Assembly (NCBI GenBank): GCA_963667175.2
Contig: CAXXXF010000015.1
Coordinates: 352,001 to 416,000 of the forward strand
Direction of reading: 5' to 3'
Origin: Candidatus Latescibacterota bacterium
GTDB taxonomy: Bacteria > Latescibacterota > UBA2968 > GCA-2709665
Length of the DNA stretch: 64,000 nucleotides
A model generated the notes under the pieces. It had not been told where the DNA came from. It did not search any database and saw only the letters and a program-made list of their open reading frames with translations. The translations under genes and the position numbers were made by a program. Positions 4,105 through 62,192 of this stretch are shown in pieces; within the stretch, counting starts at the first letter, position 1; each line of letters starts with the position of its first letter.

Positions 4105-4780
4105 CTTCGTCCTTTTTCTTATGCCGCGTAAGAAAAAGGACCAAAAAGAACCGCCGACCTACCCCCTATCCCCCTTCCCGGGGGGAAGGGGGAACTGTCA
4201 TCGCTTGTAGACGTCTCGCTCTGCTCCCCCTCTCCCCACGGGAGAGGGGGCCTGCCTGCCGGCAGGCAGGCCGGGGGGAGAGGTCTGCGTCTATCTGGTC
4301 CTGCCACGTGACGGTGCAGACGTCAACGGGTTTGGCTCTTGACTCAAGCTGACTGCTGATGGCTGACTGCTTTGGTTTTCTTTGTGTCTTCGTGTCTTTG
4401 TGTGAGCGGTTTTCGCTTTTGCTTCAACGGGAATTTGGGGAAAAGGAGATTTTGAAGTTGACGTTCGACTTTGATTCTAGCTGTCTGCTGGCATCTGGTT
4501 TGGTTTCCCTTTGTGTCTTCGTGTCTTTGTGTGAGCTGATCTTCGCTTGTGGCTGATAGCTGACTGCTTTGGTTTTCTTTGTGTCTTCGTGTCTTTGTGT
4601 GAGCGGTTTTCGCTTTTGCTTCAACGGGAATTTGGGGAAAAGGAGATTTTGAAGTTGACGTTCGACTTTGATTCTAGCTGTCTGCTGGCATCTGGTTTGG
4701 TTTCCCTTTGTGTCTTCGTGTCTTTGTGTGAGCTGATCTTCGCTTGTGGCTGATTGCTGACCGCTGATCGCTGCTCTTCA
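4105..4780. repeat. Composite repeat block including a 197-bp tandem duplication
   Basis: TCCTTTTTCTTA/TAAGAAAAAGGA hairpin, a REP-like hairpin doublet at ~4165-4285, and two near-identical units at ~4362-4557 and ~4559-4754. Confidence 0.9.
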
Positions 4781-10813: not shown

Positions 10814-10866
10814 CGAGAGTCGGGGGCCTGCCTGCCGGCAGGCAGGCCGGGAGGAGAGGGCGCTGC

Positions 10867-16972: not shown

Positions 16973-18912
16973 CGTCTACCCTTCTCCCCGCCAACCTACC
17001 CCCTATCCCCCTTCCCGGGGGGAAGGGGGGACTGTCATCGCCTGAAGACGTCTCGCTCTGCTCCCCCTCTCCCTCCGGGAGAGGGGGCCCGCCTGCCGGC
17101 AGGCAGGCCGGGGGGAGAGGTCTGCGTATTGTTTGCCTTTTGCTTCAAGCTGATTGCCGACTGCTGATTGCTTTTCCTCGTGTCTTCGTGTCTCCGTGTG
17201 AGCTGAATGTCGTTCTCTTTCCGTCTCTACCCTTCTCCCCGCCGACCTACCCCCTATCCCCCTTCCCGGGGGGAAGGGGGGACTGTCATCGCTTGTAGAC
17301 GTCTCGCTCTGCTCCCCCTCTCCCCACGGGAGAGGGGGCCCGCCTGCCGGCAGGCAGGCCGGGGGGAGAGGTCTGCGTATTGTTTGCCTTTTGCTTCAAG
17401 CTGACTGCCGACTGCTGATTGCTGGTTTGCTTTTCCTTGTGTCTTCGTGTCTCCGTGTGAGCTGAATATCGTCCTCATTCCGTCTCTACCCTTCTCCCCG
17501 CCAACCTACCCCCTATCCCCCTTCCCGGGGGGAAGGGGGGACTGTCATCGCCTGACGACGTATCGCTCTGCTTCCCCTCTCCCGGGGGGAGAGGTCTGCG
17601 TATTGTTTGCCTTTTGCTTCAAGCTGACCACCGACTGCTGATTGCTGGTTTGCTTTTCTTTGTGTCTTCGTGTCTCCGTGTGAGCTGAATATCGTCCTCA
17701 TTCCGTCTCTACCCTTCTCCCCGCCAACCTACCCCCTATCCCCCTTCCCGGGGGGAAGGGGGGACTGTCATCGCCTGTAGACGTCTCGCTCTGCTCCCCC
17801 TCTCCCCCCGAGAGAGGTCTGCGTATTGTTTGTCTTTTGCTTCAAGCTGATTGCTGACTGCTGATTGCTGGTTTGCTTTTCTTTGTGTCTTCGTGTCTCC
17901 GTGTGAGCTGAATATCGTCCTCATTCCGTCTCTACCCTTCTCCCCGCCAACCTACCCCCTATCCCCCTTCCCGGGGGGAAGGGGGGACTGTCATCGCCTG
18001 AAGACGTCTCGCTCTGCTCCCCCTCTCCCTCCGGGAGAGGGGGTTGGGGGGAGAGGTCTGCGTATTGTTTGCCTTTTGCTTCAAGCTGATTGCTGACTGC
18101 TGATTGCTGGTTTGCTTTTCTTTGTGTCTTCGTGTCTCCGTGTGAGCTGAATATCGTCCTCATTCCGTCTCTACCCTTCTCCCCGCCAACCTACCCCCTA
18201 TCCCCCTTCCCGGGGGGAAGGGGGGACTGTCATCGCTTGTAGACGTCTCGCTCTGCTCCCCCTCTCCCCCCGGGAGAGGGGGCCTGCCTGCCGGCAGGCA
18301 GGGGGGAGAGGTCTGCGTATTGTTTGCCTTTTGCTTCAAGCTGACCACCGACTGCCGACTGCTGGTTTGCTTTTCTTTGTGTCTTCGTGTCTCCGTGTGA
18401 GCTGAATATCGTCCTCATTCCGTCTCTACCCTTCTCCCCGCCAACCTACCCCCTATCCCCCTTCCCGGGGGGAAGGGGGGACTGTCATCGCTTGTAGACG
18501 TCTCGCTCTGCTCCCCCTCTCCCCCCGGGAGAGGGGGCCTGCCTGCCGGCAGGCAGGCCGGGGAAAGAGGTCTGCGTATTGTTTGCCTTTTGCTTCAAGC
18601 TGACTGCTGACTGCTGGTTTGCTTTTCTTTGTGTCTTCGTGTCTCCGTGTGAGCTGAATATCGTCCTCATTCCGTCTCTACCCTTCTACCCGCCGACCTA
18701 CCCCCTATCCTCCTTCCCGGGGGGAAGGGGGGACTGTCATCGCTTGTAGACGTCTCGCTCTGCTCCCCCTCTCCCCCCGGGAGAGTGGGGCCCGCCTGCC
18801 GGCAGGCAGGCAGGGGGGAGAGGTCTGCGTATTGTTTGCCTTTTGCTTCAAGCTGACCACCGACTGCCGACTGCTGACTGCTTTTCCTTGTGTCTTCGTG
18901 TCTCCGTGTGAG
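16973..18912. repeat. Tandem array of 8 composite palindromic units of ~220-260 bp
   Basis: The CTTCCCGGGGGGAAGGG hairpin core recurs near 17011, 17261, 17521, 17744, 17967, 18206, 18461 and 18713, each followed by the same modules. Confidence 0.95.
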
Positions 18913-18929
18913 CCGATTCTCTTTCCACT

Positions 18930-26149: not shown

Positions 26150-26422
26150 TTAGAGTTTGACGAGAATGAGCGTGCCGAGCGCAACCAGCGTGGTAAACTG
26201 GATGCCGATCATCCAGCGGAACACGCTATCGACGCGCGCGTTCACGTCCCGGAATCCGGTATCCATGCGCGCGTTGATTTCGCGGAAACCCTGATCGACG
26301 CGGGTTTCCAGGTTGCCCATACGGGTTTCCAGGCTTGCCATGCGCTGGCTCAGTTGTTCGACGGTTCCCTCGACGCGAGAAAGCCGGGCGTCGAAATCGT
26401 CGGCGGGCGTTGCGATCTGCAC
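26150..26422 (-). CDS. Small coiled-coil protein with C-terminal TM helix (DUF1640/CCDC90-like), copy A
   Basis: GGATAGGAG RBS then GTG; coiled coil followed by WMIGIQFTTLVALGTLILVKL. Confidence 0.75.
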   Translation of the reverse strand: MQIATPADDFDARLSRVEGTVEQLSQRMASLETRMGNLETRVDQGFREINARMDTGFRDVNARVDSVFRWMIGIQFTTLVALGTLILVKL

Positions 26423-26533
26423 TGCGGGGCTCCTATCCCCTTCAATTCGCAAACCGGATCAGGATTCTCAGGATGAAGGGATGAACAGGATGAAAACCGA
26501 AAAGGCGCGAGAGAACGAACGACGGCGCCGGTG

Positions 26534-26872
26534 TTAGAGTCTGGCGAGAATGAGCGTGCCGAGCGCAACCAGCGTGGTGATCTGGATGCCGATAATCCAG
26601 CGGAACACGCTATCGACGCGCGCGTTCACGTCCCGGAATCCGGTATCCATGCGCGCGTTCACGTCCCGGAATCCGGCATCCATGCGCGCATTCACGTCCC
26701 GGAATCCGGCATCCATACGCGCGTTCACGGCCCGGAATCCGGCATCCACGCGGACTTCCAGGTTGCTCATGCGGATTTCCAGGCTGCTCATCCGCTGGCC
26801 AAGCTGCTCAACGGCGCCATCGAGGCGAGAAAGCCGGGCGTCGAAATCGTCGGCGGGCGTTGCGATCTGCAC
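26534..26872 (-). CDS. Small coiled-coil TM protein, copy B
   Basis: Paralog with four 11-aa DAGFRDVNARM-type repeats. Confidence 0.75.
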   Translation of the reverse strand: MQIATPADDFDARLSRLDGAVEQLGQRMSSLEIRMSNLEVRVDAGFRAVNARMDAGFRDVNARMDAGFRDVNARMDTGFRDVNARVDSVFRWIIGIQITTLVALGTLILARL

Positions 26873-26965
26873 TGCGGGGCTCCTATCCCCTTCAATTCGC
26901 AAACCGGATCAGGATTCTCAGGATGAAAACCGAAAAGGCCGAGAGAACGAACGACGGCGCCGGTG

Positions 26966-27205
26966 TTAGAGTCTGGCGAGAATGAGCGTGCCAAGCGCAA
27001 CCAGCGTGGTGATCTGGATACCGATCATCCAGCGGAATACGCTATCGACGCGCGCGTTCACGTCCCGGAATCCGGCATCCATGCGGACTTCCAGGTTGCT
27101 CATGCGGATTTCCAGGCTGCTCATCCGCTGGCCAAGCTGCTCAACGGCGCCATCGAGGCGAGAAAGCCTGGCGTCGAAATCGTCGGCGGGTGTTCCGGTC
27201 TGCAC
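26966..27205 (-). CDS. Small coiled-coil TM protein, copy C
   Basis: Paralog with one 11-aa repeat. Confidence 0.75.
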   Translation of the reverse strand: MQTGTPADDFDARLSRLDGAVEQLGQRMSSLEIRMSNLEVRMDAGFRDVNARVDSVFRWMIGIQITTLVALGTLILARL

Positions 27206-28389: not shown

Positions 28390-29385
28390 CAGCGGTCAGG
28401 GGTCAGTGGTCAGTGGTCAGCTTGAGACAAAATCGAACATCAGCTCACACGGAGACACGAAGACACAAAGAAAACCAAAACCAGTGGTCAGTGGTCAGTG
28501 GTCAGTGGTCAGCTTGAGTCAAAATCGAACATCAGCTCACACGGAGACACGAAGACACAAAGAAAACCAAACCAGCGGTCAGCCGTCAGCTTGAGTCAAA
28601 ATCGAAAATCAGCTCACACGGAGACACGAAGGCACAAAGAAAACCAAACCAGCGGTCAGCCGTCAGCTTGAGACAAAATCGAACATCAGCTCACACGGAG
28701 ACACGAAGACACAAAGAAAACCAAACCAGCGGTCAGCGGTCAGCGGTCAGCCGTCAGCTTGAGTCAAAATCGAAAATCAACTCACACGGAGACACGAAGA
28801 CACAAAGAAAAGCAAAGGCAACCAGCAACGGCGAACCCGTAGACGACCCCTCCCGGCCCCGCAGACCTCTCCCCCCTGCCTGCAGGCAGGCAGGCCCCCT
28901 CTCCCGGGGGGAGAGGGGGAGGAAAACCGGTCACCGAACGAGGATCACCGTTCCCCCTTCCCCCCGGGAAGGGGGTTAGGGGGTAGGTCGGCGGTGGAAG
29001 GGGGGAGATAGGAAATGAGAACGAAAATCAACTCACACGGAGACACGAAGGCACAAAGAAAACCAAACCAGCGGTCAGCTTTCAGCGGTCAGCCGTCAGC
29101 TTGAGTCAAAATCGAACATCAGCTCACACGGAGACACGAAGACACAAAGAAAACCAAAGGCAACCGGCAACGGCGAACCCGTAGACGACCACCCCCAACC
29201 CCGCAGACCTCTCCCCCCGGCCGGCCTGCCTGCCGGCAGGCCGGCCGGGGGGAGAGGGGGAGCAAACCGGTCACCGAACGAGGATCACCGTTGCCCCCTT
29301 CCCCCCGGGAAGGGGGTTAGGGGGTAGGTCGGCGGTGGAAGGGGGATAGGGGTAGGTCGGCCGGGAGAGGGGGGCCCAAGGCCGG
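28390..29385. repeat. Composite repeat array left of the DUF559 gene
   Basis: Repeated CAGCTCACACGGAGACACGAAGACACAAAG and GTCAG(C/T)G heptamers, plus two REP-like hairpin doublets. Confidence 0.9.
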
Positions 29386-29386
29386 T

Positions 29387-29767
29387 CTATCGCTTCATGG
29401 TGTATTTTCTGATTGATTGGAGCACGCCATCAAGATTCGTACGTATTTCGTCATTTGTAATTCGTAATACCTGTAATCCACGCGCTATCAGAATGGCATC
29501 CCGTTTTGCGTCATAAGCTGCCTGATCCTGGTGAATCTCGCCGTCGACTTCGATTACCAGGCCGACGGAGTGACAATAGAAATCGACAACGAAGCCGTCG
29601 ATGATCTGCTGCCGTCGAAAGTGAATGCCGTCAAGCCGATTCGCACGCAAGTGCTGCCATAGCTGTTTTTCTTCTTCTGTCATCTGTGATCGTAAACTGT
29701 GCGCCAACTTTACTTTCTCAATGTCAACGCGCTGGCCCCTGACAAGATATCGCCTGGATCTATTCAT
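29387..29767 (-). CDS. DUF559 (Vsr-like) endonuclease domain protein
   Basis: LRSQMTEEEKQLWQHLR, FRRQQIIDGFVVDFYC, IEVDGEIH, YDAKRD and VLRITN; AT-richer than flanks. Confidence 0.92.
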   Translation of the reverse strand: MNRSRRYLVRGQRVDIEKVKLAHSLRSQMTEEEKQLWQHLRANRLDGIHFRRQQIIDGFVVDFYCHSVGLVIEVDGEIHQDQAAYDAKRDAILIARGLQVLRITNDEIRTNLDGVLQSIRKYTMKR

Positions 29768-29769
29768 TA

Positions 29770-30176
29770 GCCTCTCCCCCTGGCGCAGACCTCTCCCCCC
29801 GGCCTGCCTGCCTGCCGGCAGGCCCCCTCTCCCGGGGGAGAGGGGGAGGAAAACCGGTCACCGAACGAGGATCACCGTTCCCCCTTCCCCCCGGGAAGGG
29901 GGTCAGGGGGTCAGGGCGGCGGCGGGAGAAGGGGGAGAGAGGAAATGAGAACGAAATTCAGCTCACACGGAGACACAAAGACACAAAGAAAACCAAAGCG
30001 TAAGATCCGAGACTTCGGCCCGGAAGGGAGATGCAGCGTTCAGCCGTCAGTCAAGAGCGAACCACCCCCAACCCCGCAGACCTCTCCCCCCGGCCTGCCG
30101 GCAGGCCGGGGGGAGAGGGGGAGCAAACCGGTCACCGAACGAGGATCACCGTTCCCCCTTCCCCCCGGAAAGGAGG
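29770..30176. repeat. Composite repeat array right of the DUF559 gene
   Basis: Two further hairpin doublets with the ACCGGTCACCGAACGAGGATCACCGTT linker. Confidence 0.9.
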
Positions 30177-33100
30177 TCAGGGCGGCGGCGGGACCGCCGT
30201 GCGGCCGAAGGAAGCGGCGAGGGCGACGAAGTCGGCGAAGTTCACGGCGCCGTCGTCGTTCACGTCGGCCTGGGGGTTGTACGCGGCGTCGCCCTTTCGG
30301 GCGCCGAAGGCGGCGGCGAAGGCGATGAAGTCTTCGAAGTTGACCTCGAGGTCGCCGCCCTGCGACGGGAGGACGATGAGGTGGACCGGGTCGCCGGCGG
30401 GGTCCGCGAACTTCACGCGGATGGAGACGTTCGCGATCTCGACCAGGTCGCCCGCGGTCGCGTTGTTGTCGTCAACCGCGTCGATCCGGTAGACCAGCGA
30501 GGCGACGCCCTCGGGCAGGGCGTCGTCGACGAACCGGGTGGACCCCGGAGGCAGGACGGCGATTTCCTCGAGGCGGTCGGCAGACGCGCCGCGCATCACC
30601 CGGTACCCCGTCACCCCCGGGATCGGGATGCTGTACCCGCGATAGGGAATGACCCCCACCACGCCGTCGTCCGCGGACGCCGTCCACCGCAGCAACACGC
30701 CGCCTGCGCCGTCGCCGGACGCGCCGGTCACCGCGGCGGGCGGGACATCGTCCACGGCGGCGACCGGTCCGTCGGTTTCCATCCGCGCGGACACCCGCAG
30801 TTCGCCCGCCGCGCGGTCGGCGCCGACGCCGGCCGGAACGGCGGCGGCAACCGGCGCGCTCACGCCGGGGTCCAGCGACGCGAAGACCAGGTCTTCCCGA
30901 TCGCCGATGAGGGACGCGGCGAAATCCACCGGCGCGCGGAACCGGTCCGGCAGCTCCTCATCCGCCAGGACCGGCGACGGAATGCCCATCCGCGCGAGGG
31001 TTTGCCGCGCGCGCGCCTTCGCGACCACGCGTTTTCCGGCCGAGGCCGCGTCCACGCCCGCGACGGCCCGGACGCCCCAGCGGGTGGCCTCGTTGTCCAG
31101 CGCGGGGACCACGGCGCGCACCATGCCGCCGTCCGGACCGCCCGTCCCTCCGCCGTCCCCGGCGCCGACGCGCGCCCACTGCGTCCACGTCTTCACGGGC
31201 ACTTCCCCGTGTATCTCGCGGCCGCGCTCATCGTACCCCGCCAGCGTCGTTTCCACTTCCCGCTCGATCAGGTAGTGAATCACGGCGTCGCCCCGGGCGG
31301 AACGCGGGAAGCCGATCAGCACCATGCCGCCCTGGTCGCCGGTCCCGTCCGCGCCCTTGTAGTCCTCCACCGTGATGGAGGCGGGGGGGTCCGGGGGACC
31401 TCTTTCAGGCCTGAAACGCACGGTCACGCCGCCCGTAAACGCGCCGGTCACGGCGTTGTCGCCCGTGCCGGTGACGTAATCCGCGGCAATCGTGCGCACG
31501 GTGATCAGAGCCGTTCCGTCCAGGCCGGCGGCCACGGCGCCAAACTCGGCGCCGCCCGGCGGGACCGTCTGGGCGCCCGTGGGGACCTTCACCGCGGCGT
31601 GGCTGGAACCGAAGGCGACGGCCACCGACGCGTACGTTTCCGATCCCACGGTATTGTCGATCTTCATGCTCGCGTTGCCGAACGCGTCGGCCGGCGTCAC
31701 CCGCACCGCAAACGCGCCGGACACGCTGCCGTCCGGGACCGCGCCGTCCCCGGCGGACACCGCGAATTGCGACAGTTCCGCGGCCTCGACGTTCACCGCC
31801 GCGTCCAGCCGGCCGCTGATGCGAATCGACCGGGTCCCGTCAACCGGGTCGATCAGGCCTTCGACCGCCATCACGGTGGCGCCGGCGAGCGGCCGGGCGG
31901 ACCTGAAGCTCACGTCGCGCCGGCCCGCGCGCCATCCGTCGCCGTCCAGAGTCGCGGCGCGGGCGACCATGCCGGCGGCGGCCATCTCCGCGGGAAGCGC
32001 GAAGGACGACGCGGGCCTCACGCCGATGCCGCCGAAGCTCACGCCCTCCAGCGCGTCGGCCTGATCGCCGGAAACGATCACGGCCAGCGCCGCCGGCGTG
32101 CGATAGGTCAACGCGAGGACGCCGGCGCCCTCGGCGCGCGAGAGCGTGGTGTCCAGGACCGACAGGCGCAGGGCGAAGTCCGCGCCGGCGACCACCCTGC
32201 CGCCCTGGTCCGGCGCGTTGACGATCCTGAACGCGTCGGCGTTCGGGTTCAGGAAGCCCCTGGCGAACGTGAGCGCCCCGCCGCCGGTCACGCTGGCGTT
32301 GCCGGCGAGGTCCACCGCCAGAATCTGCAGCTCGTACCGGCTTCCGTTCCAGAAGCCCGCGCTTTCCACGGGCCAGGTCATCGGGGCGCCGACGGTCTCG
32401 AGCCGGCGGTTTCCCCGGTGGAAGCGCTGCACAACCGCCGGGGCGCCGACGGCGAGGTCGATATAGCGGACGGACAGCGATTCCAGCGCCTCGTCGATGG
32501 CGAAGACCGGGTCCTTGCTGGCCAGGTTGATGGTGGGCGCGTCGTCGTTGTCCGCGTCCACGGGAGCGGTGGCGGCGGTGGGGAACAGATCGGCGATCAC
32601 CGGCGCCTTTTCGTCGTACCAGACGCCCGCGAGGTCCATGGCGGCCCGGTTCCCGAGGCTGTCCCAGACCTCGATCCTCAGGTCTTTGCGCACCCCGCCC
32701 GCGCTGTCGTATTTCCAGGGAAGCGCGAGCGTGGCCGTGGAATCGTCGCCCGTGGGCGGCAGGCCTTCGTCGACGCCGCCGCCGCCGCCGAACCCGTGCG
32801 CGCTGTCGCCGTGGGTGATCCGGATGGAGTCCGGGACTTCGCTGAGTCTGAACGTGAGCGGGTTCAACCCGCGGTTGGCATGGACGCCCTCGGGCTCTCC
32901 GGGCAGAGGTCGAATTCCCGACAGCGTCTGCGTGACGGCCGCCGAGATCCGGTCTTCCTTGCGGTCCGGATCGGGGTGGATGACCGTGATCGCCGGCGGC
33001 GTCGCGTCCGCGATCCACTCCACGCCGCCGGGATCGAAGACGTCCGGCAGTCCATGCCCCGCCCGGACTGCCGAAGGCGTCCCGGCGTCCATGGCGGCGG

Positions 33101-35094: not shown

Positions 35095-35255
35095 TAGCAG
35101 TCCGTTGAAAAAGTCGCTCTGCAGGCGAGGCCGAGTCATTGTGGCCGAAGACAAGGCGCGCCTGTCTGCGTGCCTGCCTGCGCCGAGACGTGCTCGGCAG
35201 GCAGGCGGACACGCACAGGCAGGCAGACCGGATGGACTTTTTCAACGGGCTGGTA
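35095..35255. mobile_element. MITE-like element with ~21-bp terminal inverted repeats
   Basis: TAGCAGTCCGTTGAAAAAGTC ... GACTTTTTCAACGGGCTGGTA (2 mismatches); no transposase; carries nested mini-hairpins. Confidence 0.75.
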
Positions 35256-37701: not shown

Positions 37702-37799
37702 GGAACCTCCCCCTGGACTGGTGGCCCGCGAGCCGCCCGACCGGGCCTGTCCGCCGTGCTGCGGCACAGGCAGGCGTTCACGAGCGGGAAAGAAAAAGG

Positions 37800-40074: not shown

Positions 40075-40750
40075 AAGCAGCGATCAGCAGTCAGCAAAAA
40101 TCAACTCACACAAAGACGCGAAGACACAAAGGAAAACAACTGCAATCAGCGATCAACTAGAATCAAAAGCGAAAATCGAGAGCGAGAATCAAATTCAACG
40201 TCCACGTCTCCCCAAATTCCCTGCCTCCGGCGGGTTCCTTTTGAAGCGACCAAAAGGAACCAAAAGTCGCCGCTGGGCGCCTGCCTGCGCCAAGCCCCGC
40301 GCGGCAGGCAGGCGGGGCCTGCCATATGCAAAGCGCGAACACACTCACTGGATGCACTTAACCTTGATTCGTAGTTCTTCGGGAACGTTCATTCGAATAA
40401 ACGCAGGTGAATCAAGGCGATTTGACGTCGGAATTTCAGGAACCTTCAGGTCACTGGACGTGAGCGGAGAAAACATCCATTTGGACGACCTCTACACGCC
40501 GTTTCGCAGCCCTGCCCTTTGTGTCTTTTGTGCTTTTTGTGGCTGATTTTACGGTTATCTTTTTTCGAATTGAGGTTAGCGCTCAGCCAGGAGGGAACCA
40601 CCGCAAACCCTTCCCCCGGAACCCGGTTCCAACGGGTGTTTGTCCGCCGACAGACTACCCTTCAGGATACTACGGATAAACCACGGGAGGACCCAACCCT
40701 TCTTCATTCTTCCTTCTTCGTTCTTCCTTTTACCCTTTACCGTCTCACCG
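40075..40750. repeat. Repeat-rich spacer between pth and hppA
   Basis: CACAAAGACGCGAAGACACAAAG module, GGTTCCTTTT/AAAAGGAACC hairpin, 33-nt mini-hairpin and ~90-nt dispersed element. Confidence 0.75.
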
Positions 40751-41311: not shown

Positions 41312-41575
41312 GAGAACCCCCAAAAGGCAGCCATCAGCGTTCAGCTCTCAGCAATCAGCAAAGATCAAAAGCGACAATCGGCTCACACGAAGGCACGAAG
41401 ACACAAAGGAAAACAACTGCAATCAGCCGAGAGCGAACCACCCCCAGCCCCGCAGACCTCTCCCCCCTGCCTGCCGAAAAACCGCCGGCAGGCGACCTGT
41501 CAGGATGCTATGGGCAAAACACAGGAGGACCACCCCGTTTTCATTCTTCCTTCTTCCTTTCCCGTCTCCCCGCTC

Positions 41576-42305: not shown

Positions 42306-42376
42306 CTGCCGGGCAGGGATTCGAACCCCGATAAACGGCTCCAAAGGCCGCTGTCTTACCCTTAGACGACCCGGCA
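42306..42376 (-). tRNA. tRNA-Gln (UUG)
   Basis: TGCCGGG acceptor stem, GCGGC-CT-TTG-GA-GCCGT anticodon arm, GGTTCGAATCC T-arm; CCA not encoded; usual position after ispE. Confidence 0.95.
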
Positions 42377-43378: not shown

Positions 43379-43660
43379 TGGGAAAACCCTTATCCTGCAA
43401 GGAGCTGTCAGCTTTCAGCGTTCAGCAATCAGCTTGAATCAAGAGCGAACGTCAAATTCACCATCCACGTCTCCCCAAATTCCCTGCCGTCGAAAAGCAG
43501 CTTTCAGCAGTCAGCCAAGAGCGAACCTCCCCCAGCCCCGCAAACCTCTCCCCCCGGCCTGCCTGCGCCGAGTTCTGCTCGGCAGGCAGGCCCCGTCTCC
43601 CGTCTCACCGCTTTTAGATTTTCATTCTTCATTCTTCATTCTTGCCGCCTTTTGGCGCTC

Positions 43661-43921: not shown

Positions 43922-46900
43922 ATGCATATTTCTCGCATGTCACTCCCAACGCTTTCATCGCCGCGGCTGCTCCCGGGCGCGGTCGTCGGGCTGTGTGTTC
44001 TGCTGGCCTGTTCGACGCCCGTCGCGGGGCAGGCCGCCGAGGGTGAGCGCGAGAGCATCGAGCTCGCGCAACGGCTCTTCGACAACCGGGATTATGCCAA
44101 TGCGGCGCACGAATTCCGGCGCTTCATCGCCTCCTATCCCACGAGCGCGCGGCTTCCCTCGGCGCTCTTTCAACGGGGCGAGGCCCTCTTTCTGGGCGAA
44201 CGGTTCAGCGAAGCCGTCGTTGCGTACGACGACTTCCTCGTACGGTATCCCGGACGCCTGGAAGCGGACCCGGCCCTGCGGCGAAAGGCGGAATCCCTGG
44301 AGCGCCTCTCCCAATACGCCAGGGCCGGAGCGGCCTTCCGGGAAGCGCACGACCGGTTCGCCGCCGGCAAACACGCCGCCCGAAACCTCCTCGCGGCGGG
44401 GATCAACTTCCACAAGGGAAAGGACCTGGACGCCGCGGGAAAGGCGTTCGGCGCGCTGGTGGCGAATTTCCCCCAATCCGCGCTCGCCGCGGAAGCCGGC
44501 TACCGGTGGGGGCTCGCGCTGCTGGACGCGGGACGCCCCGAAGAGGCGCTGGAACGGTTCAAGACGATATCCGATCCCGGCGCGGGTTCCAGGTGGACGC
44601 CGGACGCCCTGCTCGAAATCGGCAAGACCGCCCTCGGCATGAAGGACGTGAAGGAGGCGGAGGCGGCTTTCGGCACGCTGCGAAGGGCGTATCCCGGTCA
44701 TGCCGCGGCCGGCGCCTCCTACCTGGAACTGGCCGCCTGGTATGAAGGCCGGGAGAACTGGCCGAAGGCCGCTGACGTCTACGGCCTCGCCCGCGGCAAT
44801 CTCCCGCAAAGCGAAGGCCGCCGGCAGGCCGTGCTGGGCCTGGGCAACGCCTGGCTCGAACTGGGCCGAACGGCCGAAGCGCTCGCGCTATTCACCGAGT
44901 TCATCAACGTCTATGCCGCCAGCCCTCGCCTGGACCGCGCCTGGCTGGGCCTGGGGCGCGCCCACGCCGACCTGAATCAGTACCGCGAGGCCCAGAACGC
45001 GTTCCGCCGCCTCCGGGAGCTCTTCCCGGAATCGGAGGCCGGCATCCGGGCGCACGCGGAGATGGGCGACGCCTGGCGGGCCGCGGGCGCGCCGCACAGG
45101 GCATTGAGGGCGTACCGGGCCTACGCCGGGCGGGCGGAGGCGCCCGGCGCCAAAGATTCGGCCCGGCTGCGGATCGCGCGAACGTACGAACAGGACCTGG
45201 GGTGGCACGACCTGGCCCTGGCGGTCTACCGGGACCTGGCGGAAACGGCGCCGGCCGACGTTGCCGGCGAAGCGCAGTTCGGCATCGCCCGTATTCTGGA
45301 TCGAACCGGGCGGGCGGACCGGGCCATTCGCGAATACCGGGCCTACCTGCGGCAATACGGCAGCCGCGCCGGCGAGGCCGAGAACCGCATCCGCTACCTG
45401 CGGGAGTTCGGCCGCGACGCCGCGGGCGTACCGCCGGCCGACCTGGCCGCGCTGCTCTCGAGTCTCCCTGCAATCGCCGGCGATCCGCATGCCCGGTTCG
45501 CACTCGGAAAGTTCCTTCACGACCGGCGGCAATACGCCCAGGCCGCCGAAACGCTCGCCGCCGGGCCGTCGGGGGATCCCCCGCCGCCGTTTGCCGCCGA
45601 GGCCGCCTGGCTTCTGGGCCGGAGCGCCCTGAAAGCGGCGCGGAAAGCGGAACTGGACGGCGGGCGGGAACAGGCATCGTCCTGGCGGCAGAAGGGCCTG
45701 GCGGCGCTCGGGGAGGTTGAAGACGGGTATCCGGAAAGCGAGTTCGCGGACGACGCCGGCCTGTTGCGAATCGAAACGGAAACCCGCCTGCCTGCCAGTC
45801 CAGCCAGCAAAGACAGGCGGGCCGAGCGGATCCCGGCCAGTCTGCCGTTCCAACGGGACAGGCAGGCGCAGGCGGGCGAAGCCGGCGTGGACGCGGCGAG
45901 GGCGAGACGGCAACTCGCGGCGTACCGCGAATTCGCGAAGACCTACCCCGGATCCGACCGGATGGACCGGGCGCTCCTGGGGATGGCCGACGCGATGCGC
46001 ACGCTCAGCCGGGTCGAACCCGCGTGGATCGACACCGCCCTGACAACCTACCGGGAGATCAGGGACGCGTATCCGAAAAGCCCGGCGGCGGAACGGGCAA
46101 CCTACGGCATCGGACTGTGCCAGGCCCTGAAGAAGGACTACGCGGCCGCCGAGGAAACGCTGCGCGATTTCCTCTTCGCGTATCCACGGAGCGACCTGGA
46201 GAGCCACGCCAGGCACGAGCTCGGCCGCATCCTCCTGGAGCGGGGGTTTCCGAGGAGCGCGGCGGACGACCTGGCCGAACTTCTCGCGGGGCCGGCGTCG
46301 CCCGGACTGGCGCGGTCCGCGCGTAACCTGCTGGCCGAGAGCTACTTCAGGGCGGATAACTACCGGCGCGCCATCGAAATTGACGTCGAACTGCTTTCCA
46401 TTGGACCCGACGGGCCCGCGCTCCGCCGGCTCGCGCGGTCCTACGAGGCGAACGGACAGGCGGCCGAAGCCATCGAAACCTGCCAGGCCCTGTTGAGCGC
46501 GTATCCGAACGCGGCCGACGCCGACAGCTTCGCGTACGCCCGGGCGCGGCTTCTGGCTCGCCTGAACCGGGAGTCCGAAGCCGTCGCGGCCTTCAAGGCG
46601 TTCCCGAAACAATATCCCGAAAGCCCGCTCAGGGCAACCGCGGGCAAGGCCCTGGCAACCCTCCTGTTCGACGCCGGAGAATACCGGAACGCGCTGGCGG
46701 CCATTGCGCACGTCCCCGTGCACGCGAGGGACGCGCAGGTCGCCGGAAGCGAAGTCCTCAGCCTGTTCCGGCTGAAACGCGCGCAGGAGGCGAAGAAAGC
46801 CGCGGGCAGGTTCAAGAAGACCTACCCGAACAGCCGCGAGTGGCTCGGCAGGTTCAAGAACGAGGAGGGCAGGTTCTATCTGAACGCCGGCAATTTCAAG

Positions 46901-47704
46901 AAAGCCCGTCAGATTTTCGAAGGCGTGGTCAAAAACCATCCCGGCGGCGAAACCGCGGCCGAAGCCGCCTGGTATCGCGTCAGAACACTGAAACGAGAAG
47001 GTCCGAAGGAAGCATACCGGGAGGCGCTCGCGGGCTTCGTGAAGACCCGTTCAGGCAGCAGCCGCTGGTCCGCCGCGGCCCTGGAGCTGGCCGATATCCT
47101 CTACGACGGCGGGGATTTCGAACGGGCGTCCAGAGCCTACCGGAACGTGCTCGAGGCCGGCCCGTCGCCCGAAGAAACGCCGAAGGTGCTGTCCAGACTG
47201 ATGAAGGTCCACAGACGTCTGAAGCTGCTGGATACGGCGATCGCCTACGCCAACCGGCTCGTCCGGGAATTTCCCGGGCATTCCCTCGCGTCGGACGTGC
47301 GCATCGAAATCGGGACCATGTTGCACGACAACAAGCAATACCGGCTGGCAATCGCCCGGCTGACGCCCCTGCTGAAAGACGCCGAGGGGAACGACTGGTC
47401 GACCATCCAGTATTGGCTCGCAAAGAGCCACTTCGGACTGCGAGACTACGAAAGCGCGAAACGGGAATACCTGAAACTTCAGTACCAGTTTCAGGGCGCC
47501 ACGCAATGGGTGGCCAGCGCCCAGGACGGACTCGCCAGCTGCTATGAAGCCCAGGGGAACTACCGGGAGGCGATCCGGGAACTCGAGGCCATCCGGCGAC
47601 GGGAGGGGGCGACCAGCGACTTCGGCCTCCAGGCGGGACAACGCATCGAAATGCTGAAGGCGCTCCTGAACAGCAGCCAGGAATCCGCGCCGCGCGCGCC
47701 CTGA
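43922..47704 (+). CDS. Large exported tetratricopeptide-repeat protein
   Basis: Signal-like hydrophobic segment and many TPR units ending in YP(x)S. Confidence 0.88.
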   Translation: MHISRMSLPTLSSPRLLPGAVVGLCVLLACSTPVAGQAAEGERESIELAQRLFDNRDYANAAHEFRRFIASYPTSARLPSALFQRGEALFLGERFSEAVVAYDDFLVRYPGRLEADPALRRKAESLERLSQYARAGAAFREAHDRFAAGKHAARNLLAAGINFHKGKDLDAAGKAFGALVANFPQSALAAEAGYRWGLALLDAGRPEEALERFKTISDPGAGSRWTPDALLEIGKTALGMKDVKEAEAAFGTLRRAYPGHAAAGASYLELAAWYEGRENWPKAADVYGLARGNLPQSEGRRQAVLGLGNAWLELGRTAEALALFTEFINVYAASPRLDRAWLGLGRAHADLNQYREAQNAFRRLRELFPESEAGIRAHAEMGDAWRAAGAPHRALRAYRAYAGRAEAPGAKDSARLRIARTYEQDLGWHDLALAVYRDLAETAPADVAGEAQFGIARILDRTGRADRAIREYRAYLRQYGSRAGEAENRIRYLREFGRDAAGVPPADLAALLSSLPAIAGDPHARFALGKFLHDRRQYAQAAETLAAGPSGDPPPPFAAEAAWLLGRSALKAARKAELDGGREQASSWRQKGLAALGEVEDGYPESEFADDAGLLRIETETRLPASPASKDRRAERIPASLPFQRDRQAQAGEAGVDAARARRQLAAYREFAKTYPGSDRMDRALLGMADAMRTLSRVEPAWIDTALTTYREIRDAYPKSPAAERATYGIGLCQALKKDYAAAEETLRDFLFAYPRSDLESHARHELGRILLERGFPRSAADDLAELLAGPASPGLARSARNLLAESYFRADNYRRAIEIDVELLSIGPDGPALRRLARSYEANGQAAEAIETCQALLSAYPNAADADSFAYARARLLARLNRESEAVAAFKAFPKQYPESPLRATAGKALATLLFDAGEYRNALAAIAHVPVHARDAQVAGSEVLSLFRLKRAQEAKKAAGRFKKTYPNSREWLGRFKNEEGRFYLNAGNFKKARQIFEGVVKNHPGGETAAEAAWYRVRTLKREGPKEAYREALAGFVKTRSGSSRWSAAALELADILYDGGDFERASRAYRNVLEAGPSPEETPKVLSRLMKVHRRLKLLDTAIAYANRLVREFPGHSLASDVRIEIGTMLHDNKQYRLAIARLTPLLKDAEGNDWSTIQYWLAKSHFGLRDYESAKREYLKLQYQFQGATQWVASAQDGLASCYEAQGNYREAIRELEAIRRREGATSDFGLQAGQRIEMLKALLNSSQESAPRAP
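45787..45876. mobile_element. Three nested mini-hairpin elements (33+27+30 nt) inserted in frame in the TPR gene
   Basis: Outer CCTGCCTG|CCGAGCGGATCCCGG|CGCAGGCGGG resembles the reverse complement of the 33-mer at 35173-35205; inner elements at 45795-45821 and 45837-45866. Confidence 0.75.
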
Positions 47705-49334: not shown

Positions 49335-49890
49335 GCGGGACCTCTCCCCCCGACCCCTTAAAAGCGGGGAGAGGGGAGACGGGAGATGATGAGCTGCCTC
49401 TATGGGATATCGATACGGACTGGCGAGATCTTCCGGCGACAGCCGCAGACCTCTCCCCCCAACCCCCTCTCCCGGGGGGAGAGGGGGAGCAGAGCGAGAT
49501 GTCTTCAAGCGATGACCGTTCCCCCCTTCCCCCCGGGAAGGGGGATAGGGGGTAGGTCGGCGAGGGGTGTGGGGGATTGTAAGCGTTGCATCGCGCAAGA
49601 AGTTCATCGCAGGTAGGTTCGCGAAGTCCAGTCGAGCGCACGGAACCCAGTTCCAACGAGTGTTTGTCCGCCGACAGGCACCCTGTTGGGATGCTATGGA
49701 TAAACTGTACGAGGACCAACCCGTTTTCGTTCTTCCTTCTTCCTTCTTCCTTCCTCCTTCCTCCCGTCTACCGTCTCACCGCTTTCAGGTTTTCCTTCTT
49801 CCTTCTCCCTTCTTCCTTTTTCCTTTTCCCTTTTCCCTTCTCCCTTCTTCCTTCTTCCTTTTCCCTTCTTCCTTCTTCCTTCTTCCTTGT
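49335..49890. repeat. Composite repeat plus polypyrimidine heptamer tract
   Basis: REP-like doublet, ~90-nt element and TTCCTTC iterations; unit shared with 52155-52420 and 53945-54150. Confidence 0.85.
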
Positions 49891-52027: not shown

Positions 52028-52154
52028 GGAAACGGTGTGATGGTGGGGCCTGCCTGCAGCGCCTGTCTGCGTGCGCACACGCACAGGCAGGCAGTTCGCT
52101 GCGCAGGCGGGCAGACATTCCTGTCTGCCCGCTTTTTTATTTCCGCAGGAATGC

Positions 52155-53944: not shown

Positions 53945-54446
53945 CGGGGAGACGGTAGACGTTAGACGGGAGATGATGAGCTGCGTCTATGGGATATCGA
54001 TACGGACTGGCGATATCTTTCAGCGATAGCCGCAGACCTCTCCCCCCAACCCCCTCTCCCGGGGGGAGAGGGGGAGCAGAGCGGGACGTCTTCAAGCGAT
54101 CACAGTTCCCCCCTTCCCCCCGGGAAGGGGATAGGGGGTAGGTCGGCGGGGACGTGGAGGAGAGATTACCTGCCGTGTGAGGTCTCGATCCAGGCCGGAG
54201 GCATTCAGGAAGAGCATATTGGGCAAGCGTCTTCTACCGTCTCACGTCTCACCGCTTTCAGGTCTTCCTTCTTCCTTCTTCCTTCTTCCTTCTCCCTTCT
54301 TCCTTCTCCCTTCTTCCTTCTTCCTTCTCCCTTCTCCCTTCTTCCTTCCTCCTTCTCCCTTCTCCCTTCTTCCTTCCTCCTTCTCCCTTCTTCCTTCCTC
54401 CTTCTCCCTTCTTCCTTCCTCCTTCTCCCTTCTTCCTTCTTCCTTC
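53945..54446. repeat. Composite repeat and ~190-bp TTC(C/T)(C/T)(T/C)C heptamer microsatellite
   Basis: Direct copy of the 52155 unit, then a pure C/T tract from ~54262 to 54446. Confidence 0.9.
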
Positions 54447-56204
54447 TCACCGCTCTTTCCTGATCTCGATGACGTAGGTCTCGGGAGATTCGGTTTTGTG
54501 TATCACCTCGAAGCGTTCGGGATAGGCTTTTACGGCCGGGACGATGTACTTCATTTTCTCTTTGAAAAACGGGACGTTGTCCAGAAGGACGTAGTCGAAC
54601 GCTTCCAGGGCCCGCAGGGCCCGGGCGGGATCCTCCACGCGGGGATAGCCACCGGTTTCCCGCTCCGACCAGAACCAGACCAGACCCGGTTTTCGGGTGG
54701 AGACGCGGCTCTGAGGCGGCGTGTTGTCCCGTATCCAGACGCTGGCCTCGTAGTACGTCTTCCAGTGCCGATGATAGCCCGGCGCCATCCTCTTTTCCCG
54801 TACGATTCCGAAATCCACGAACAACGATGGCAGCAGAAACAGACAGGCCAGGAACACGGGCGCATGCCTGTTCAGAACGGGACGTGTAAACACGGGCGCG
54901 ATCTTTCTCAGTGCCGGAAAGCGGGCGTAGCGCCGGGCCGGACCCGTCGATTCCGGGAAACATGCGCAGATCTTTTCTGCAGCCTTGAAAACGTAGAGCA
55001 TGATGAACGGCAGGATGGGGAGAAGATATCGATGCGGGGAACCGGGAAGGGTGAAGAGGGTCGCGACGTATCCCATGAAAAACCAGTCGTGGACCTCCAG
55101 GCTTCGCAGAAGCGAGAGGGGCTTTCTGTCAGGCGACGTTCTCCCGAACACGAACCCGATGCCGATCAGAATCAGAAGGAACCAGCCGATGGGCCGCCAT
55201 TTTGCGGAAATCGGCAACGGGTACATATACTCGACAGGCAGCAGGAGGTATTCCAGGTTCTTCAGATAGCCTGCCGGGTTTTTGTTGAAGATATAATAGA
55301 AAAAATTCTGCCAGAAGGAACCCGCTTCACCTTCCGGAATATAGGCTCCTCTCGCGATCTGATGGATCATTCCCAGGTATCCCTGGGACTCGGGAAAGTT
55401 GACCTTCAGGTACATTGCCCAGGGCAGCACCCAGACGGAGGCGCATGCAACGAGAAGCAGCGGTTTCCTGACCTCCTTTCGAAGCGCGAGGTAAATGGTT
55501 GCCGCAATCACCAGGTATATGGACGGGGACTTCACATGGTAGGCCCAGCCGGCGGCGCAGGCGGCGGCGATCAGCCATTTCCGCGAAATCCCGGGTCGCC
55601 TGATATATCGAAGAATAACCCACAGCGCCAACAGCGAAAAGGCCGGGAAGGGCACGTCCGCCGTGACGACGGCGGCGTATTCCACCGCAATCCAGAACGC
55701 GCCGCAAATCATCGCAATCAGCAGCGCCCGGTTGGCGTTCATGAATTCCCGAAAGACCAGAAACGCGCAGAACGGCAACAGGAAGCCCGAAATCGCGATC
55801 GTGACCTTGAGCGCGGGCACGCTGCCACGAAACAGGACGACCGCCGGCGTCAGCAGGGTCTTCACGCCCAGGCCGTACTGGCTGTCGAGAACGCGCTTTC
55901 CCTGAACCAGGCGCCTGGCGTCCCTGATATACGCGATATTGTCGCCGATCACGTGGACCCACTCGTTGCAGGTGAGCAGGTACAGACCGGTGACGGCGAC
56001 GCAGCCCGTGACGGCCGCGGTCACAATCCGGCGTTCCGGAATCCGCCCGAAAGCCGCCAGGCCGGCGACGCAGAGAATCACCACCATACAGGCCATCGTG
56101 GGCGCCAGCGTCGCAACGTTGAGACGGTGCGCGCAGTGATAGGCCAGCAGGACGACCAGGGAATACGGGAAAACGTAGCTGAGATATCGGGCGGTCGCGT
56201 TCAC
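54447..56204 (-). CDS. Polytopic GT-C fold glycosyltransferase (GT39/ArnT-like)
   Basis: Many TM helices, GDNIAYIRDARRL loop, RYLLPILPF and ASVWIRDNTPP; coupled to the GT2 gene. Confidence 0.7.
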   Translation of the reverse strand: MNATARYLSYVFPYSLVVLLAYHCAHRLNVATLAPTMACMVVILCVAGLAAFGRIPERRIVTAAVTGCVAVTGLYLLTCNEWVHVIGDNIAYIRDARRLVQGKRVLDSQYGLGVKTLLTPAVVLFRGSVPALKVTIAISGFLLPFCAFLVFREFMNANRALLIAMICGAFWIAVEYAAVVTADVPFPAFSLLALWVILRYIRRPGISRKWLIAAACAAGWAYHVKSPSIYLVIAATIYLALRKEVRKPLLLVACASVWVLPWAMYLKVNFPESQGYLGMIHQIARGAYIPEGEAGSFWQNFFYYIFNKNPAGYLKNLEYLLLPVEYMYPLPISAKWRPIGWFLLILIGIGFVFGRTSPDRKPLSLLRSLEVHDWFFMGYVATLFTLPGSPHRYLLPILPFIMLYVFKAAEKICACFPESTGPARRYARFPALRKIAPVFTRPVLNRHAPVFLACLFLLPSLFVDFGIVREKRMAPGYHRHWKTYYEASVWIRDNTPPQSRVSTRKPGLVWFWSERETGGYPRVEDPARALRALEAFDYVLLDNVPFFKEKMKYIVPAVKAYPERFEVIHKTESPETYVIEIRKER

Positions 56205-62094: not shown

Positions 62095-62192
62095 GACACC
62101 CCCCACCGCATCAGCCTTCGCCTGACGGCTCGGCTTCTGCCTGCCTGTCCTGCGGACGCAGGCAGGCGACTCCCCCTCGAGGGGGGAGTGAT
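62095..62192. repeat. REP-like element (ACTCCCCCTCGAGGGGGGAGT) carrying a 27-nt mini-hairpin
   Basis: Palindrome at ~62169-62189; CCTGCCTG...CAGGCAGG at 62140-62166. Confidence 0.65.

Follow-up and report, generated by a model that had tools for sequence, protein, structure and literature searches.

Within the 64,000-nt stretch of Candidatus Latescibacterota DNA analysed here (the window), a plus-strand open reading frame at 43922..47704 encodes a 1260-residue TPR-repeat protein (Pfam TPR_6, TPR_16, YfiO-like and others) that is probably a lipoprotein. The gene contains, at 45787..45876, an in-frame composite of 90 nt in which three hairpin elements are nested; the insert splits an Arg codon between its second and third bases and is translated as the 30 residues LPASPASKDRRAERIPASLPFQRDRQAQAG, and direct reading of the sequence bears out that its excision leaves IETETR-EAGVD. 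A first, sequence-only reading had described this block as a 33-nt element into which elements of 27 and 30 nt had entered, each at G|C, and both the parse and the two G|C positions are confirmed, with all three parts family-like. The outer element lies on the plus strand in three pieces, namely (i) the 5' outer stem with the conserved 8-nt family end (45787..45794), (ii) inner stem, loop and inner stem (45822..45836), partly common to the relative G009, and (iii) a CG bulge with the 3' outer stem (45867..45876). Rejoined, these 33 nt comprise an 8-bp outer stem, a 5-bp inner stem, a 5-nt loop and the CG bulge, which is the commonest layout of 33-nt elements. The nested 27-mer (45795..45821) is degenerate and forms a weak hairpin (z −1.5); its three other genomic copies, with 4–5 substitutions each, are all likewise nested directly 3' of the initial 8 nt of a different element. 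The nested 30-mer (45837..45866; hairpin z −2.5) differs by one mismatch from a 30-mer found three times elsewhere in the genome. Judged by its DNA fold z-score of −1.2, the composite is decayed when compared with intact intergenic copies. In the structural model of the protein the insert is a loop (pLDDT 42–48) flanked by two helices with pLDDT >90, and may be tolerated in that form.

The same kind of element recurs across the window, where the pattern CCTGYCNG-N(4-30)-CAGGCRGG yields 39 matches on both strands (0.03 expected from shuffles), including every recurrence listed by the sequence-only reading and others besides. Two intergenic composites of 63 nt are nested at G|C in opposite order: at 35161..35223 a 33-mer (35173-35205) sits within a 30-mer (DNA fold z −4.2), and at 52049..52111 a 30-mer (52062-52091) sits within a 33-mer (z −3.4). 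The former recurs elsewhere in the genome, and composites seem to move onward as units. A canonical 33-mer at 43558..43590 (fold z −4.35; 0/200 shuffles as stable) lies within a copy of a host repeat of ∼250 nt, as does a 27-nt variant with an A-rich loop at 41466..41492; this host repeat also forms a tandem array at 16975..18913, each unit of which carries a 20-nt family palindrome (17088, 17339, 18283, 18538, 18791), and a second cluster at 28875..30105 with family palindromes of 12–24 nt (28875, 29225, 29803, 30094). Further copies are an intergenic 33-mer (40280..40312), a 29-nt element (37746..37774), a 27-mer at 62140..62166 that lies in a different dispersed repeat, at its recurrent target ...GGCTTCTG|CGACTCC..., and a 20-nt palindrome (4251..4270) found again at 10827, 34473, 37867 and 52287. 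Rfam 15 at gathering score matched none of the elements, its sole match in the window being a tRNA (42306-42376).

Genome-wide, 282 strict copies represent 98 distinct sequences of 16–36 nt (main lengths 33, 19, 30 and 28 nt) with the conserved ends CCTGCCTG...CAGGCAGG, written CCTG(C/T)CTG...CAG(G/A)CAGG; the reversed pattern, serving as a control, gives 0–1 matches per genome. Intergenic copies number 243 (86%) in a genome that is 83% coding according to a home-made gene caller, and ∼5% of the copies are intragenic. Intact copies fold as stable DNA hairpins (z −2.9 to −4.4, with −3.4 to −4.4 for intergenic 33-mers and nested 63-mers). The proposal that the inner stems vary while their pairing is kept holds for the 34 distinct 33-mers, in which 80% of the inner-stem pairs are Watson-Crick, with A-T, C-G, G-C and T-A as alternatives, against 63% in shuffles (0/1000 reach the observed value) and 17–32% for slid partners. 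Self-nesting accounts for 27 level-1 parses and one level-2 parse among 353 loose-pattern parses. Neighbouring copies are mostly far apart (175/237 gaps >2 kb), and recurrent spacings of 32, 36 and 54 nt correspond to two target sites in one host repeat; many copies reside in other dispersed repeats, and part of the copy number reflects duplication of such hosts and not movement of the elements.

Across genomes the distribution is burst-like. Five genomes contain 180 (G000), 150 (G009), 127 (G015), 118 (G016) and 74 (G011) copies and many congeners contain 0–3, so that congeners span the range from 0 to 180; G009, G015 and G016 are complete single-contig genomes. Contrasting counts are 20 in G012, 10 in G019 and 2 in G020. 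Of 168 genomes of the phylum, 12 reach 10 copies or more, and family f1 accounts for 11 of them. The element family is largely confined to one family-level clade of Candidatus Latescibacterota. A search of the literature on Latescibacteria and sponge symbionts for such a hairpin family returned nothing relevant.

How the elements enter a site can be read from 24 clean filled/empty paralogous pairs within the genome, which match at 26 or more of 30 flanking bases and are otherwise unchanged, a comparison that by itself cannot separate insertion from precise deletion. The boundaries are base-exact and a target-site duplication is absent in 24/24 pairs, of which 22 are at G|C, one at A|G and one at A|C. 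Over all copies, G occupies position −1 in 243/282 (86%) and C position +1 in 249/282 (88%), the genomic frequency of either base being ∼30%, so that the G|C targeting noted from the window alone proves to be strong. The sequence-only reading had left open whether the junctions are blunt or include a 2-bp GC duplication; blunt insertion is favoured, since elements that entered at A|G, A|T or A|C keep the full CCTG...CAGG ends and show no duplicated GC. The claimed mobile dispersal is likewise supported by identical elements in unrelated contexts, with 144 element-context combinations for the 98 sequences, one 19-mer occupying nine contexts and single 33-mers four to six. Intergenic synteny with G009, G012, G007, G013 and G014 revealed a clean empty site for the element at 37746 alone (in G012, reading GACCGGG|CGTTCACG), most sites being scrambled by other repeats; together with the paralogous pairs this establishes that empty sites exist. 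Taken together, the element inserts as a discrete unit, precisely and without target-site duplication, usually at G|C and in a looser description at purine|pyrimidine, often YG|CR. It lands by preference in other repeats, in hairpin loops and in older members of its own family, and it is this last preference that gives rise to the nesting.

Orthologs of the TPR protein, present in 41/41 relatives searched, allow the history of the composite to be followed. Eleven were compared at the insert site. Seven lack the 30-residue segment and are empty there, as the sequence-only reading had anticipated, and four (those of G009, G012, G007 and G013) are filled with simpler or different combinations of elements which share the same 8-nt end and enter at the same codon. 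The insert of G009 is otherwise similar to that of G000, the genome of the window, but without the 30-mer; G012, the sister of G000, has a simpler insert; and the gene of G007 carries a nested 36-mer that is the same as one in a heparinase II/III-like gene. The filled orthologs form one side of a gene-tree branch (support 97/93) and the seven empty ones the other. One 33-mer entered the TPR gene in the common ancestor of five species, and the 27-mer and the 30-mer were later inserted inside it in the G000 lineage. In four public runs (Logan contigs) no filled/empty variant was found at the TPR site, where the contigs end inside the insert (45844-45869) and none spans it. Contig joints from public runs skip 33 nt at 35171-35205 (X3, X19, X20) and at 40278-40312 (X1), with short sides of 20–45 nt; these joints may derive from paralogous copies.

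Two further genes bear comparable inserts. An HsdM/S-like methylase gene has a 33-nt in-frame insert absent from 3/3 orthologs aligned, and the heparinase II/III-like gene has a 69-nt in-frame insert, a 33-mer with the nested 36-mer, absent from 5/5 orthologs; two of the latter are 92–93% identical, which points to recent activity of the elements. The expected bias towards multiples of three within coding sequences is not seen per element (8/13 in coding sequences versus 142/243 intergenic, with crude home-made gene calls) and emerges solely from the net lengths of the inserts (90, 33 and 69 nt) in the three ortholog-checked genes. The rare insertions into genes survive when they fall in a tolerant loop and their overall length is divisible by three, and they add new peptide to the protein. 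The 19-mers scored as lying in coding sequences fall in short or IS-transposase-like ORFs.

These orthologs also bear on the view that the filled/empty pattern arose without insertion, either because an ancestral segment was precisely deleted or because a motif with a structural or regulatory role was selected. Palindromes are prone to deletion, and the simpler insert in the sister genome G012 would fit with loss. The seven empty TPR orthologs, however, occupy the other side of the tree, the protein of distant genera aligns only on both sides of residues ∼620–655, the methylase and heparinase-like inserts are unique to G000 among the orthologs aligned, and identical elements reside in unrelated unique contexts. 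Hence, we consider deletion or motif selection very improbable.

Based on the evidence collected so far, the family is best explained as miniature, non-autonomous, REP-like hairpin mobile elements, with the TPR block representing three generations of them, and we assign this reading a probability of roughly 0.7. Mobility, as claimed by the sequence-only reading, is upheld by the empty sites and the diversity of contexts; mobilisation in trans is what we infer, no enzyme having been found. In such a scheme, a host-encoded enzyme would recognise the flush hairpin and move it in trans, cutting at G|C at both ends of the element and in the target, and its substrate would most likely be single-stranded DNA handled in the manner of HUH enzymes (IS200/IS605, RAYT, IS91/Helitron-like).

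One candidate for such an enzyme is offered by the classical REP/RAYT system, in which the elements would be REPs moved by one of the RAYT-like Y1 (HUH) transposases of the genome. The genome does encode several RAYT-like proteins in which an HUH motif is combined with a Tyr region at the C terminus, and the small size, hairpin shape, extragenic bias and duplication-free insertion fit HUH chemistry. One RAYT-like copy (G000:C7:62893-63492) lies between two family elements, at distances of ∼240 nt and 430 nt, but its paralog is without nearby family elements. At E <=1e-10 this C7 type was not found in G009 (150 elements) or G012, but it is present in G008, G014 and G004, which have 0–1 elements. 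Close orthologs of a second gene, the C3 type (77–91% identity), occur in G009, G007, G011, G013 and G016, with 150, 26, 74, 15 and 118 elements, respectively, and the carriers include a genus whose TPR protein is just 49% identical. The C3 gene, however, is embedded among arrayed GTAG-tagged hairpins that are its own (GAGGGCA..TGCCCTC) and that flank it on both sides in G016 as well, and a close C3-type ortholog was not found in G015 (127 elements), G006 or G012. A third RAYT-like gene (C12) has yet another GTAG REP on its flanks. Among the family elements themselves, GTAG occurs within 8 nt in only 3/282, versus 8 in control windows placed at a distance of 40 nt, and CGTC in 38/282 versus 25, the CGTC occurrences being traceable to host repeats. 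Considered as mobilisers, the three RAYT-like lineages thus either have GTAG REPs of their own or do not track copy number, and none is convincing. We therefore regard movement by a resident RAYT as rather unlikely.

An autonomous parent of the REP-like elements was sought among orphan CCTGCCTG/CAGGCAGG pairs 0.1–6 kb apart and among multi-copy repeats 600 bp or more in length, and none with these ends was found; in a few cases the orphan ends belong to a 33-mer that another insertion has split. The 43 ORFs bracketed by two elements within 3.5 kb appear by eye to be ordinary genes, except for the RAYT-like gene on C7. It is tempting to speculate, tentatively, that the flush 16–36-nt hairpin is itself the whole transposon and defines a self-contained class, served by a non-RAYT enzyme from no recognised transposase family of the genome. 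A similarly tentative part of this proposal is that the hairpin is cut out and pasted at purine|pyrimidine, landing preferentially in hairpins including those of its own kind. If true, this would reveal a new cut-and-join mechanism, acting on transposable units smaller than any known so far, and a way for proteins to acquire loops.

Movement without any transposase may also be envisaged if templated repair or gene conversion copies ectopic hairpins into hairpin-induced breaks by way of 1–2 nt of YG...CR identity. The location of many targets within palindromes or other repeats, the G and C common to donor flanks and target, and the lack of an identified transposase would all agree with repair copying. 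Yet no donor flank is carried along past the base-exact boundaries of the 24 clean pairs, the A|G, A|T and A|C insertions are without such microhomology, and the 100-fold differences in copy number among congeners are not predicted by general repair, so that repair copying appears improbable, and insertion of mobile hairpins remains the reading that we prefer.

Comparison with known systems places the family close to REPs, which PMC3733652 describes as palindromic repeats of 20–40 bp, present in tens to hundreds of copies, mostly extragenic, and sometimes located inside genes (20–30 extra residues) or inside other small palindromes. In the generic sense the present elements are REPs, that is, short multi-copy imperfect palindromes, mostly extragenic. 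They differ from the GTAG and CGTC REPs (Di Nocera 2013) in that an unpaired tag is absent and both ends are paired and flush; a dedicated transposase is likewise lacking for CGTC REPs (PMC3733652). In contrast to REP/RAYT systems, a cognate RAYT was not found, self-nesting is frequent and insertion is base-exact (at G|C, free of duplication), and the doublet of inverted REPs at fixed spacing which makes a REPIN is absent. In-frame REP insertions in genes having been published already, the gene insertion seen here is not new in kind; the unusual features of the family are its self-nesting and the cleanness of its insertion signature.

MITEs are portrayed in PMC3733652 as 70–300+ bp long, derived from IS with matching terminal repeats and making target-site duplications. 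The present elements resemble them in being non-autonomous, short and dispersed with inverted-repeat ends, and differ in their smaller size, the absence of target-site duplication and the absence of a parent IS with the same ends. The sequence-only reading was thus correct that they are far smaller than typical MITEs, while any suggestion that this is unprecedented falls with the REPs. Elhai et al. reportedly described in 2008 (Genome Res 18:1484) the SDRs of Nostocaceae (SDR1-8), hairpin-forming repeats of 21–27 nt regarded as mobile, for which no mobilising enzyme is known; SDRs can nest in each other. One of them, SDR5, is reported in PMC5861425 to insert at the palindrome HIP1. The likeness, drawn by description, is one of behaviour only (very small, hairpin-forming), whereas the phylum is different, the sequences are probably unrelated, and here the ends are conserved while the middle varies with compensatory changes. 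Rickettsia palindromic elements of the RPE-1 type are ∼100–150 bp long. Palindromic repeats of Rickettsia occur in frame inside genes whose proteins probably still function (PMC3733652). In contrast, the present elements measure 16–36 nt, reach a comparable insert size only by nesting, and have only the small intragenic fraction given above.

In outline, the hairpin-defined ends, the fixed short target and the absence of target-site duplication recall IS200/IS605 and IS91/Helitron; for Helitrons this target is the junction of a host A and T, for IS608 the position 3' of TTAC. The present family differs from both in having no transposase gene within or beside the element, one flush hairpin without distinct left and right ends, and a target constrained symmetrically on both flanks. 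IS200/IS605-derived (PATE-like) elements would be expected 3' of a fixed tetra- or pentanucleotide, constrained on one flank alone and oriented with the lagging strand. Transposition of single-stranded DNA of the IS200/IS605 type would predict a replication-strand bias; for asymmetric 33-mers none was detected (32/29 versus 21/12, by a crude local GC-skew proxy on contigs). The 33-mers show a 38:18 excess along the direction of co-directional flanking genes, the copies being non-independent owing to host repeats.

On the question of how tiny palindromic repeats such as RAYT-less REPs, CGTC REPs and cyanobacterial SDRs move, the present family provides an unusually clean data set, with base-exact filled/empty pairs, a G|C target without duplication, nesting that records the order of events, compensatory subfamilies, and 100-fold copy-number differences across complete genomes of one genus. 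These merits make a hunt for the enzyme by comparative genomics and oligonucleotide biochemistry feasible, with tests that must be heterologous since Candidatus Latescibacterota are uncultured. For protein evolution, the TPR gene documents the growth of a loop by nested insertion, stepwise across sister species, from 0 to 11–12 and then to 23–30 residues.

The 90-nt block at 45787-45876 lies within a 1260-aa ORF (43922..47704, + strand), identified by Pfam as a long TPR-repeat protein with a YfiO-like region at the N-terminus, and encodes 30 residues while the reading frame continues uninterrupted throughout. Comparison with the remaining genome resolves the block into an outer 33-nt element with the layout most common among the 33-mers of the family, split into three pieces (45787-45794, 45822-45836 and 45867-45876), a nested 27-nt element (45795-45821) and a nested 30-nt element (45837-45866). 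This three-part parse, along with the open frame running through it, bears out the sequence-only reading of nested, frame-preserving elements that add 30 aa. The 30-mer differs by a single base from a 30-mer having three copies elsewhere in the genome, and the 27-mer has three more copies (4-5 substitutions each), all of them nested directly behind the initial 8 nt of a further element of the family. Both nested elements have G on one side of their insertion point and C on the other. When folded as single-stranded DNA the composite is no better than shuffles (z -1.2), whereas intact copies between genes form good hairpins: z is -4.35 at 43558-43590, -4.2 for the nested 63-mer at 35161 and -3.4 for that at 52049. 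Hence, the copy in the TPR gene is old and decaying. In an AlphaFold model of residues 500-800 (12-sequence alignment, mean pLDDT 85.8), the 30 inserted residues link two confident helices as a loop with pLDDT 42-48.

That this composite belongs to a large family is evident from the genome-wide scan. The pattern CCTGYCNG-N(4-30)-CAGGCRGG matches 39 times over the two strands of the window, where 0.03 matches are expected, and a loose pattern has 314 plus-strand matches in the 5.52-Mb genome (18 contigs), with length peaks at 33 nt (81), 19 nt (53) and 30 nt (23). Iterative parsing of nested copies followed by a strict end filter yields 282 elements with 98 distinct sequences. The 33-mers comprise an outer stem of 8 bp, a CG bulge (two bases, on one side), an inner stem of 5 bp and a loop of 5 nt, and the inner stem distinguishes subfamilies, each represented by several identical copies. 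Watson-Crick pairs make up 80% of the inner stem in 34 distinct oriented 33-mers, and four of its five positions show alternative pair types; the corresponding values are 63% for shuffled partners (0/1000 reach 80%) and 17-32% for slid partners; sequence relatedness inflates this test of covariation, but the compensatory pairs are nonetheless plainly visible. No Rfam family covers the elements, the sole Rfam match in the window being a tRNA gene (42306-42376, - strand).

Comparison of loci indicates that the copies are insertions. Identical elements occur in unrelated surroundings (144 element-context combinations), and a syntenic empty site for the copy at 37746 was found in the relative G012. 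Each element with 150-nt flanks was also compared with the whole genome, a filled/empty pair being defined by matches at 26/30 or more of the 15+15 flanking bases and absence of exactly the element. For 24 elements a second locus is missing exactly the element (four of these pairs repeat an element-context already listed), with junctions at G|C in 22 cases and at A|G and A|C in one case each. Three independent subfamilies have inserted at ...GAGGGCAGGA|TGCCCTC..., and complete CCTG...CAGG ends are found there as well as in the A|G case and in genic A|C cases. Hence, blunt pasting suffices: of the two junction readings proposed earlier, blunt insertion stands and the 2-bp GC duplication is unneeded. 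The proposed G|C bias is pronounced, with G at position -1 in 243/282 copies and C at +1 in 249/282; since position -2 is biased to C/T and +2 to G/A, the usual target is a short self-complementary YG|CR. Many elements have landed in dispersed repeats of other kinds, in hairpin loops or in members of the family, which explains the nesting (of 353 loose-pattern parses, 27 are nested at the first level and one at the second) and means that host-repeat duplication contributes to the copy number.

Orthologs of the TPR gene contain the anticipated empty sites: seven of 11 relatives (G014, G010, G008, G005, G006, G003 and G001) lack an element and read IETETR followed by four or five residues and DS.... 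At the identical codon the remaining four carry elements: a single 33-mer in G013, a 36-nt version in G012, a 33-mer carrying a nested 36-mer in G007, and a different 45-nt composite, without the 30-mer of the window, in G009. A midpoint-rooted tree built from 265 flanking columns places all five filled sequences on one side of a branch (support 97/93), with G012 as sister of the source genome. For more distant genera the TPR protein is alignable only to the left and right of residues ∼620-655. The simplest history has a single insertion in a common ancestor of the five filled genes, with later nesting specific to each lineage.

With genes called by a self-trained ORF finder (4199 in all, 83% coding), 243 of the 282 strict copies are intergenic, 26 are at or near gene ends and 13 are deep inside called genes, several 'genic' 19-mers being located in short or transposase-like ORFs. 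The frame bias suggested for copies within genes is not seen element by element, since lengths divisible by three are found for 8/13 in-gene and 142/243 intergenic copies with these gene calls. In three genes compared with orthologs, the net insert is a multiple of three each time. In a type I HsdM/S-like methylase (contig C17), a 33-nt element at ...ATGGATGGA|CAGGATGG... is missing, exact to the base, from G012, G007 and G013; G009 has no match, and the partial match of G014 was left unaligned. The point ATGGATGGA| recurs as an insertion site for several subfamilies (G000:C17:85140-85230 and several other loci) and resembles the end of a ∼800-bp repeat with ∼15 occurrences, from which the methylase linker MDGQDGQDK may derive. 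In a heparinase II/III-like gene (contig C14), a 69-nt insert consisting of a 33-mer and a nested 36-mer is absent from five of five relatives, and is thus recent, as even G009 and G012 (92-93% protein identity) lack it. Its 36-mer is identical to the one nested in the TPR gene of G007, which suggests that composites move as units. An IS256/Mutator-family transposase gene (G000:C15:605726-607042, L052) likewise carries an in-frame 30-nt family element within a conserved stretch, and elements occur in further IS-like ORFs at G000:C2:117637-118236 and G000:C4:188390-190099.

Exact-end copies number 180 in the source genome, 150 in G009, 127 in G015, 118 in G016 and 74 in G011, then 30, 26, 20, 18, 15, 11 and 10 in seven further genomes; the other 29 of the 41 relatives have 0-8, and the reversed-pattern control matches 0-1 times. 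At least 10 copies are present in 12 of 168 genomes of the phylum, 11 of them in family f1, and the dominant inner-stem subfamily varies from genome to genome. Such subfamily turnover, like hundred-fold differences between congeners, is the expected outcome of mobile-element bursts.

As to the enzyme, no long element with family ends was found in the genome, which does encode several RAYT-like (Y1, HUH) genes. One on contig C3 (G000:C3:192505-193107; L001 1201..1806) lies within an array of hairpin doublets that are its own and bear a GTAG tag (GAGGGCA..TGCCCTC, 30 genomic copies), forming a textbook REPtron, here in a candidate phylum; identical hairpins flank its close orthologs in G009 and G016. 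Close orthologs occur in five element-rich genomes, one other genus included. As mobiliser of the family this gene is unconvincing: G015, G006 and G012 have no close ortholog, and it resembles an independent mobile unit; we read the co-occurrence as common exposure to mobile DNA, not as causal. A second RAYT-like gene, on C12, is accompanied by a different GTAG REP. The C7-type gene has family elements near one of its two copies and is matched in neither G009 nor G012, yet it occurs in genomes that have 0-1 elements. Judged from the junctions, a flush hairpin would be cut at G/C at both element ends and at the target, without duplication, a chemistry that would be most like HUH single-strand transposition (IS200/IS605, RAYT, and also IS91 and Helitrons, whose insertions fall between fixed bases of the host). 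Neither the symmetric constraint on the flanks nor the lack of a skew-linked bias in orientation especially favours HUH chemistry. A RAYT-like domain with intact HUH motif also occurs in frame within ORFs of 1200-1440 aa in G009 (L046 3478..7185), G007, G011 (two) and G016; by eye, the flanking parts resemble a DUF1156-type DNA methyltransferase, and an ATPase gene adjoins. The open frame in G016 contains, in addition, another RAYT-like gene flanked by hairpins of its own.

According to one account (PMC3733652), REPs are palindromes of 20-40 bp, some without a dedicated transposase, and are reported within genes, where they encode 20-30 residues, and within other small palindromes, the rickettsial RPEs being the classic in-frame example. 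The sequence-only reading is confirmed as an observation and holds in substance as an interpretation, but neither the smallness nor RPE-like in-frame insertion is new. Elhai's small dispersed repeats (SDRs), as portrayed in a citing account (PMC5861425), are the nearest behavioural precedent. Because the elements lack the GTAG/CGTC tag of the REP super-families, the doublet arrangement of REPINs and the characteristics of MITEs, we assign the family to the REP/SDR kind but to no named family. No earlier description was found in the main texts of the literature on Latescibacter REPs, sponge-symbiont extragenic palindromes and nested REP/RAYT systems. What distinguishes the family is base-exact, duplication-free G|C insertion combined with habitual self-nesting and no recognisable partner enzyme found.

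The window also harbors a complex GC-rich repeat of ∼250 nt, in tandem arrays (16975-18913, 28390-30200) and as single intergenic copies near 4251, 34473, 37867, 43558 and 52287. It contains several perfect hairpins (CCCCCTCTCCC...GGGAGAGGGGG, CCCCCTTCCCCCC...GGGAAGGGGG) and AGTCAGC-type short repeats; a 20-nt family palindrome is located in one hairpin, and in G009 and G012 the equivalent position is taken by a 31-mer whose loop is A-rich. At 26234-27085 a 33-nt tandem repeat of four units, within a 450-nt duplicated segment, overlaps small called ORFs (- strand), and intergenic heptanucleotide microsatellites, (TTCCTTC)n and (TCTTCCT)n, extend over 23-26 units at 49726-49888 and 54263-54447.
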